Shown one piece after another: positions 39,595-41,236 of a stretch of DNA of 64,000 nucleotides; positions within the stretch are counted from its first letter, which is position 1; each line of letters begins with the position of its first letter. Below the pieces are notes generated by a model. That model was not told where the DNA came from and searched no databases. It saw only the letters and a program-made list of their open reading frames with translations. The DNA is from Ginglymostoma cirratum (lineage: Eukaryota). The position numbers and the translations under genes are program-made. The stretch is from positions 38,359,231-38,423,230 of the forward strand of contig JAHRHZ010000098.1 of assembly GCA_024137785.1 (NCBI GenBank). Direction: 5' to 3'.

Positions 39595-40796
39595 TCTTGT
39601 AGATAGTTACCGAGCATCGGTAGATGGAGTGGATGCTTGTGTACGTGGTGCCATTATAGTGGGCTGCTTTATCCTAGATGGCGTCTACATTCTTGAGTGT
39701 TGATGGAACCTCATCCATCCAGGCATTCCATCACCCTCCTGATTTTTGTTTTGTGGATGGCGAACAGGCTTTGTGGAGTCAGGAGGAGAGTTATTTGCCA
39801 CAGTATTCATAGCCTCTGACCCGCACTTGTAGCCACAGCATTTAAGTGGTGGGTCCAGTAGAGTTTCAGGTCAACGGTAACCCCAAGAATGTAGATATTT
39901 GGGGATTCAGTGATGGTAACACCATTGAATTTCAAGGGATAGTGGTTAGTTTGTCTCTTAATGGTCATTGTCTGGTATTTGTGTGGCAGTTATGTTGCTT
40001 GCCAGTGGTCAGCCGAAGCCTGGATATTGTCCAGATCTTGCTGCATTTGAACATGGACTGCTTCAGTATCTGAGGAGTTGCAAATGCTGCAGAACATTGT
40101 GTAATCATCGGCGAACATCCTCACACCTTATGATGGAGGTAAGGTCATTGATAGAGCAGCTGAAGGTGGTTGGCCTTTGACATTACTCTAAGAAACGTCC
40201 ACAGAGATGTCCTGGAGCTGAGATGACTGACATCCCTCAACAACCGCAATCATCTTCTTATGTGTGAACAGCTTGCCCCTGATGTCCATTAATTCCAGTT
40301 TTGCTAGCATTCCTTGATGCCACACTCGGGCGAATGCAGCTTTGATGTTAAGGGCTGTCACTCCCACCTCACCTCTGGAATTTAGCTCTTTTCTATATGT
40401 TTGAACCAAGGCTGTAATGAGGTCAAGAGCTCAGTGACCCTGGCAGAACCCAAACTGGGCATCACTGAGCAGGTTATTATCGAGCAAGCACTGCTTGATC
40501 ATTTGTCCTGCTTGCGTACAGTACGTATCTGGGCAATTTTCCACATTGTCAATAGATGACAATGTTGTAACTATACTGGAAGAGCTTAGCTAGGGGAGTG
40601 GCACGTTCTAGAGCACAAGTCTTCAGTACTATTGCTAGAATGTTGTCAGGACCTGTAGCTTTTTGCACTATCCAGTGCCTCCAACCGTTTTTTGGTATCA
40701 TGTGGAATTAATCAAATTGATTGAAGACTGGTATCTGTGTTGCTGGGCACAACTGGAGGAAGTCAAGATAGATCATTCCAGCCAGCCCTAAAAAAT

Positions 40797-40868
40797 GGTA
40801 CGGTGGCTGAGTGGGAGGACATTGGTCTTGTAAACCAGAAATCGTGGGTTCGATCCCCATCTGCGCCT
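40797..40868 (+). pseudogene. tRNA-Thr-derived copy (present anticodon TGT at 40829-40831), probably a pseudogene
   Basis: 72-nt cloverleaf: anticodon arm TTGGT-CTTGTAA-ACCAG, T arm GTGGG-TTCGATC-CCCAT, acceptor GGTACGG/CTGCGCC with one A-C mismatch, D stem disrupted. The backbone resembles recalled vertebrate tRNA-Thr(CGT). Confidence 0.8.
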
Positions 40869-40891
40869 AGCAGCACTTTGGTTATTAATTT

Positions 40892-41236
40892 GGGGCGGCA
40901 CTGTGGCTCAGTGGGTAGCACTGCTGCTTCACAGCTCCAGGGACCCAGTTCGATTCTGGTCTTGGGCAACTGTCTGTGTGGAGTTTGCAACATGGGTTTC
41001 CTCCCGGTGCTCGGGTTTCCTCCCACAGTCCAAAGATGTGCAAGTTAGGTGGATTGGCCATGCTAAATTACCCGTAGTGTTCAGGGAATGTATAGGTTAG
41101 GTCCTTTGGCTATGGGAAATGCAGATTTAGGGGGATGAATCTGGGTGGGATGCTCTTCGGAAGGTTGGTGTGGAGCTTTTGGGCCAAATGACCTGTTTCC
41201 ACACAATGGGGTTCTATGTCATGTCATGTCATGTCA
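40892..41236 (+). mobile_element. HE1-type SINE, full length
   Basis: gggcggcactgtggctcagtgggtagcactgctgc head, HE1 body, CR1-like tail ending in (tgtca)n. Confidence 0.9.

Follow-up and report, generated by a model that had tools for sequence, protein, structure and literature searches.

Probable pre-tRNA/HE1 chimeric retrocopies in the genome of the nurse shark Ginglymostoma cirratum

Chimeric retrocopies of the types U6/L1, U6/L2, U6/Mon-1 and U6/AnolisSINE2 have been described (Doucet et al. 2015, PMC4476161), and template switching, according to the same paper, has long been proposed as the way in which tRNA-derived SINEs gain LINE tails and extra heads. Repeated independent additions of U1 to the 5' end of SINEU-2 were reported in PMC4494074. 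In the available parts of this paper and of PMC7245038, uniform structure and shared master features are given as the criteria of Kojima for a family amplified from a master. For sharks and rays, HE1 is listed together with the LINE HER1 as its partner (PMC3747384).

The locus analysed in this study lies in a stretch of 64,000 nucleotides of the nurse shark genome (assembly GCA_024137785.1, contig JAHRHZ010000098.1, positions 38,359,231 to 38,423,230, forward strand), referred to as the window, whose own numbering is used for the coordinates of the locus. It belongs to a type of chimera in which an unprocessed pre-tRNA, i.e. a full tRNA with its 3' trailer, is fused in the same sense to a SINE or LINE copy at its 5' end. 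We consider it probable that the genome holds dozens of such chimeric retrocopies, each likely formed independently when a LINE reverse transcriptase jumped off a finished SINE onto a U-rich point of a pre-tRNA trailer.

The insertion in the window

The insert interrupts a non-LTR LINE with endonuclease and reverse transcriptase, which lies on the minus strand, so that the insert is antisense to it. The left part of the host LINE covers 40400 to 40789 (and extends further left), the right part 41235 to 42300. Its identity was obtained from Pfam matches to RVT_1 and Exo_endo_phos_2 on a sister copy (L048); a weak RVT_1 match was found in one of the three LINE fragments of the window. A break at approximately 40781 and 41236 had been proposed in the initial annotation. 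The break is indeed single, but LINE homology was measured to stop at 40789 and to restart at 41235. Since 19 of the 24 other LINE copies aligned are uninterrupted across both flanks, the proposed single insertion was borne out: tRNA, spacer and SINE were inserted as one unit. The two LINE flanks overlap by 4–5 nt in seven of the 24 copies, and positions 40786–40789 are possibly an imperfect target duplication of 41235–41238 (4 nt, one mismatch).

Seven A-rich bases (40790–40796, plus strand) separate the LINE from the tRNA and may be a decayed pre-tRNA leader or an untemplated addition; sister fusions differ in this part. A 5' leader of about 14 nt, as initially annotated, was not retained, because half of it is LINE (homology reaches 40789) and the window copy matches the donor leader at neither -1 nor -2. 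The complete 72-nt tRNA-Thr at 40797–40868 (plus strand, anticodon TGT, no CCA) was recovered by both ARAGORN and Rfam (RF00005, 39.8 bits). The copy is a full-length but decayed pseudogene of a clustered CGT lineage. A functional tRNA-Thr gene at this position was rejected as an explanation, because the stems are mismatched, 18 differences separate it from the intact gene and it sits inside a LINE. The window locus is a dead copy.

The spacer (40869–40891, plus strand) consists of the first 23 nt of the 3' trailer of the donor tRNA gene and ends with T3. It contains T2–T3 runs only, as had been noted before, and the first T4 on the plus strand is found at 41177. The SINE covers 40892–41216 on the plus strand (profile match 40889–41218). 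It is full-length, belongs to the long-form subfamily described below and is approximately 11% diverged outside CpG sites. An (ATGTC)n tail follows at 41217–41236 (plus strand), the final CA of which is common to tail and target. A full SINE co-oriented with the tRNA, as annotated initially, was thus confirmed. The name HE1 (a V-SINE) is adopted from the initial annotation as a putative assignment.

Contigs from two public DNA runs bridge the junctions, one (run X3) spanning tRNA, spacer and SINE over 139 nt (40799–40932, 4 differences) and the other (run X1) the 3' junction (41149–41283, 0 differences), which excludes an assembly artefact as the cause of the window fusion. The window contains further HE1-type copies at 38603–38887 (plus strand, a free long form), 28787–29209 (minus strand) and 48031–48333 (minus strand).

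Recurrence of the fusion and the donor of its head

A genome search with 40782–40891 as query listed 27 loci, comprising five units of a tRNA cluster (L013, L015, L019, L027 and L022, the last assigned by its flanks) and 22 dispersed loci. Of the dispersed loci, 14 (window included) run into HE1, three into a LINE and one into another repeat. A second search with a long-spacer query including 50 nt of HE1 added 13 fusions in 30 loci examined (40 listed). Together, the two genome searches, which gave best candidates and could pass over a source locus or an amplified subfamily of small size, yielded at least 27 Thr-trailer/HE1 fusions with unrelated flanks; an exact-junction motif search found four loci among the matches listed. 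Recurrence at many loci with different flanks had been suggested as a check in the initial annotation and was found, but with several junction points rather than one. The trailer measures approximately 11–17 nt in three of the 27 fusions, 23–27 nt in five, 40–44 nt in two and 46–55 nt in 17, and a T4–T5 terminator is retained directly before HE1 in five. Short junction classes could have arisen from a long class by later deletion between TT-GG repeats, and junction variety alone is therefore weak evidence. A 3-nt trailer deletion common to three fusions (L094, L097 and L109) is in line with descent of the three from one donor gene, or with a minor master. Two trailer/HE1 fusions, L099 and L103, start (at ~1500) precisely with the first trailer base, at the RNase Z cut site.

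The HE1 partners occur in a long form with an extra segment of approximately 30 nt and a short form without it. The long form was found in seven of the 27 fusions (window included) and the short form in most others, with four undeterminable. Both forms are also found free, the long one in 6 of 13 free copies that were not picked by similarity to the SINE halves of fusions, and each of the two is joined to short trailers in some fusions and to long ones in others. This subfamily split by the ~30-nt indel replaced a permutation test on five linked HE1 alleles, which was not significant in fusions (p = 0.16) and gave p = 0.04 in free copies. The tail of a free SINE shows a local match of about 45 nt to the 3' end of the LINE in L016 (14/16 for the window copy). 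TT frequently stands before free HE1 copies as well (T at position -2 in 19 of 27), and for this reason a T at the junction alone is no proof of an oligo(U) end. In three free copies (L121, L133 and L141), a short part of the 5' end is duplicated at the SINE start.

The units of the tRNA cluster are duplicated, decayed multi-tRNA blocks with Thr, Trp, His, Ser and Glu-like copies, located on seven contigs (C85, C102, C109, C110, C127, C134 and C200; L028–L034 and L060–L084). A Thr copy is present in 24 of the 25 cluster loci examined (40 listed), and none of these 24 units has an intact tRNA-Thr. The Thr trailer of the cluster is approximately 50 nt long and ends in T4–T5; its first 23 nt make up the window spacer. 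In seven cluster units, 7 nt are missing from the terminator of Thr. The window spacer is 83% identical to the trailer of cluster unit L075, compared to 30% for the trailer of the sole intact tRNA-Thr(CGT) gene among the motif-search matches listed (L199, 1493–1565, C23), which was rejected as donor on the basis of this low identity. Moreover, a G in the D-loop of the window tRNA is common to the cluster and absent from the intact gene, to which the window tRNA is 75% identical, with 9 of the 18 differences at CpG sites, including the anticodon. Anticodons TGT, CAT or CGT are found in cluster and dispersed copies alike, a variety as produced when CGT decays at its CpG. The trailer variants CCATC and CTGTC were discarded as donor markers, since they represent CpG decay.

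In the 29 5'-complete dispersed copies, agreement with the donor leader is confined to -1 and -2 (20 copies at each position), and CCA was found in none of the dispersed copies. The retained trailer, the missing CCA and the leader of about 2 nt in sister copies support the earlier suggestion that the RNA intermediate was an unprocessed pre-tRNA, and the dispersed copies derive from primary transcripts rather than from DNA or mature tRNA. The fusions are bounded like an RNA, with no more of the donor leader than -1/-2 and the trailer ending at or before the terminator. The decayed cluster, being the donor lineage of the chimeras, was therefore once expressed in the germline.

Other heads and partners and the question of a master

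The Thr head is also found on sense, 5'-truncated LINEs, in L006 (last part of ORF2 and 3' end) and L007 (ORF1-like region); L009 presumably represents another Thr head on a LINE, to judge by a motif. In L006 (1506–1840), tRNA-Thr is followed by a trailer of about 20 nt and approximately 240 nt of LINE 3' end, which is the layout of a newborn tRNA-derived SINE. U6 runs straight into a full HE1 in 9 of 30 loci examined (48 listed; a gene cluster accounts for 7 of the 30), namely in L175, L177, L178, L180, L184, L189, L193, L195 and L197 (~1500–1940, oriented). Furthermore, U6 was found on a 5'-truncated LINE (L183) and on other repeats (L181, L185, L186, L187 and L196). A cluster of U6 gene copies (L169–L174 and L194) is located on C99 at approximately 6.40–6.42 Mb.

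Four types of tRNA heads were sampled (Thr, Trp, Ser and His). Behind tRNA-Trp, HE1 follows within 130 nt in 15 of 30 loci (40 listed), in one case with a piece of another SINE between; LINE pieces were found at two loci and another repeat at two. A retroelement stands right behind the trailer in every one of the 19 dispersed Trp copies that are not genes. In L220, the trailer is that of the near-identical gene-like copy L222 up to the T-run, where a truncated HE1 follows. For tRNA-Ser, HE1 fusions were found in 10 of 30 loci examined (37 listed), and for tRNA-His in 2 of 26. By chance, a co-oriented HE1 would begin within 130 nt at approximately 0.2% of loci, a value based on six HE1 starts in unselected DNA of 200 kb in total (8 of the 20 stretches lie near the window). 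No tRNA or U6 head was found on 42 free HE1 copies. Three-part arrangements of small RNA, a piece of another SINE and HE1 are seen at L215 and L186. Pfam searches with short partner fragments gave a match for one of seven (L219, E = 5e-4).

Two separate insertions, first of a tRNA retrocopy and then of HE1 at its T-rich trailer by target preference, could account for a tRNA next to a SINE, given that TT often precedes free HE1. Against such a course of events stand the single clean break in the host LINE and the co-orientation of every HE1 partner. In addition, none of the 19 dispersed Trp copies is without a partner, while none of the 24 cluster Thr units has HE1 despite offering the same target. 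We regard separate insertions as extremely improbable.

In the initial annotation, the unit was ascribed to a weak-terminator tRNA-Thr gene read through into a neighbouring HE1, with the SINE borrowing the tRNA gene as promoter; one or a few masters would then have amplified as a dimeric SINE. Several observations are in line with this: 17 of the 27 fusions join near one trailer position and five near that of the window, the window copy is free of T4 before 41177 and could be transcribed as one unit, and some Trp fusions have trailers of 72–128 nt, so donor terminators can leak. Moreover, HE1 is located 173–177 nt behind the Trp gene in five cluster units. This HE1, however, is internally deleted (243 nt), whereas that of the long-trailer fusion L229 is full (316 nt). 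HE1 copies located approximately 420 nt behind Thr in several cluster units were likewise rejected as source, owing to a private 12-nt deletion absent from the fusions. HE1 was not found at the terminator in any of the 24 donor-lineage cluster units, which speaks against a source gene reading through, and the five fusions retaining T4–T5 before HE1 are at odds with a single read-through master.

The relationships among the HE1 copies point in the same direction. No diagnostic non-CpG site was found between 27 headed and 45 free HE1 copies, and headed pairs share fewer rare alleles (0.71 per pair) than headed-free pairs (0.90 per pair). Redundant loci and 8 of 11 cluster-duplicated HE1 copies were left out of the rows compared; the tree was additionally built without L004, L100 and L034, which have large deletions, and without 21 of 29 top-hit copies. 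In the resulting tree of 25 headed and 23 free copies, which has no strongly supported branch, 15 label changes were counted, compared to a mean of 16.2 after shuffling. A single clade of headed copies was rejected by an AU test on 300 columns with a quick search (p = 0.0155). Since four trailer classes are crossed with two HE1 forms and no master features are shared, the fusions do not show the traits of a master family in the sense of Kojima.

The variety of heads and partners also speaks against a read-through master. The same Thr head stands on LINEs, and HE1 is also found behind U6 and three further types of tRNA, which does not fit a SINE that borrowed the promoter of a tRNA gene. The U6 promoter lies upstream, and a U6-headed copy therefore cannot stem from promoter borrowing. 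As the general origin of the fusions, a read-through master is largely refuted, and we consider it very unlikely.

Proposed mechanism and comparison with known systems

According to the reading preferred here, independent template jumps, proteins of a CR1-type LINE would bind to the tail of HE1 and begin priming at the target site; the last CA of the tail is shared with the target. At the 5' end of HE1, the enzyme would switch to a nuclear Pol III RNA, entering it either at the terminal oligo(U) or at a run of U in the trailer. Copying would then reach the start of the pre-tRNA, about 2 nt before the tRNA, or halt early. The resulting copy would decay without amplification, many copies probably being blocked by the terminator they carry.

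The same chimeras could have been joined at the RNA level before reverse transcription by an RtcB-type ligation as in human U6/L1, and 5'-truncated partners (L220, L006, L007 and L183) as well as L099 and L103, which begin at the first trailer base like a cut-off trailer fragment, are in line with this. Pre-tRNAs end with a 3'-OH, whereas a cyclic phosphate would be needed. According to PMC6789731, RtcB joins U6 with a 2',3'-cyclic phosphate end to RNAs with a 5'-OH, and the 5'-OH is required; most HE1 partners, on the other hand, start at their first bases, where a Pol III RNA is expected to bear a triphosphate. RtcB would be ill-suited to a 5'-triphosphate and to a pre-tRNA ending in 3'-OH, and the HE1 partner is usually full-length; for both reasons a template jump is preferred and ligation appears unlikely.

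A broader reading, towards which we are almost evenly disposed with a slight lean against it, is that a CR1-type enzyme routinely jumps onto nuclear pre-tRNAs and has left hundreds of frozen "proto-SINEs" like L006. The junctions would then map the germline pre-tRNA 3' ends of a dead array, and a join before or after the terminator would decide which chimeras could become SINE masters. Intermediates of SINE birth are rarely seen, and the shark chimeras are a countable set in which the internal terminator is a testable filter; recurrent fusion, which likely took place during copying of the element, would show a way in which tRNA-headed mobile elements arise. The chimeras are also a record of past germline transcription, gene by gene, in the decayed cluster. 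For annotation it is relevant that scanners accept chimeric copies as tRNAs, so that counts of tRNA genes become too high.

In the literature searched, whose coverage was incomplete (few subscription papers, no Repbase Reports or supplements), no description of full-length, sense, trailer-bearing pre-tRNA/SINE chimeras, including pre-tRNA/HE1, was found. The HE1 V-SINE, to which the 3' half of the window unit is provisionally assigned, is likewise a tRNA-headed SINE of approximately 330 nt with a tail resembling a LINE 3' end, as is that half; the window unit differs from it by an extra pre-tRNA head. Dimeric and complex SINEs, as treated in the available part of SINEBase (PMC3531059), also combine a tRNA module with a complete SINE, but the shark fusions have no uniform structure and no master signature, and at least 27 copies are known compared to a criterion of 100 copies. 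The 5' extensions of SINEU (Kojima 2015, PMC4494074, as far as available) are similar in that a head was added to an existing SINE. The mammalian tailless pre-tRNA retropseudogenes (Schmitz 2004, as cited in the available part of PMC4476161) also go back to an unprocessed nuclear pre-tRNA template; these arose by direct priming and stand alone, whereas nearly all dispersed copies in this study have a SINE or LINE as partner. In the mammalian tRNA/LINE-1 chimeras (Law and Burns 2026, PMC13174262), a tRNA was likewise co-inserted with a retroelement in one event. The available text of that paper reports 21 cases, mostly antisense tRNA halves, and ascribes them to twin priming, whereas the shark fusions are full-length, sense and equipped with the genomic trailer.

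The features found here, i.e. one-event insertion, a sense small RNA at the 5' end, no gene flanks and variable partners and junctions, are of the U6/LINE type. In the available part of PMC4476161, the U6/LINE and U6/SINE chimeras are described as a Pol III RNA in sense on the 5' end of a LINE or SINE, inserted in one event; they are the work of stringent LINEs and have short target duplications. Template switching in that material concerns largely U6 and U6atac, whereas pre-tRNAs with trailer, of at least four tRNA types, are involved in the nurse shark, in numbers like or above those of U6 among the matches listed. Full pre-tRNA heads of four types thus stand on SINEs and LINE fragments, compared to mostly U6 and antisense tRNA halves in mammals, and the U6/HE1 copies of the nurse shark genome are chimeras of exactly the U6/SINE kind (PMC4476161).
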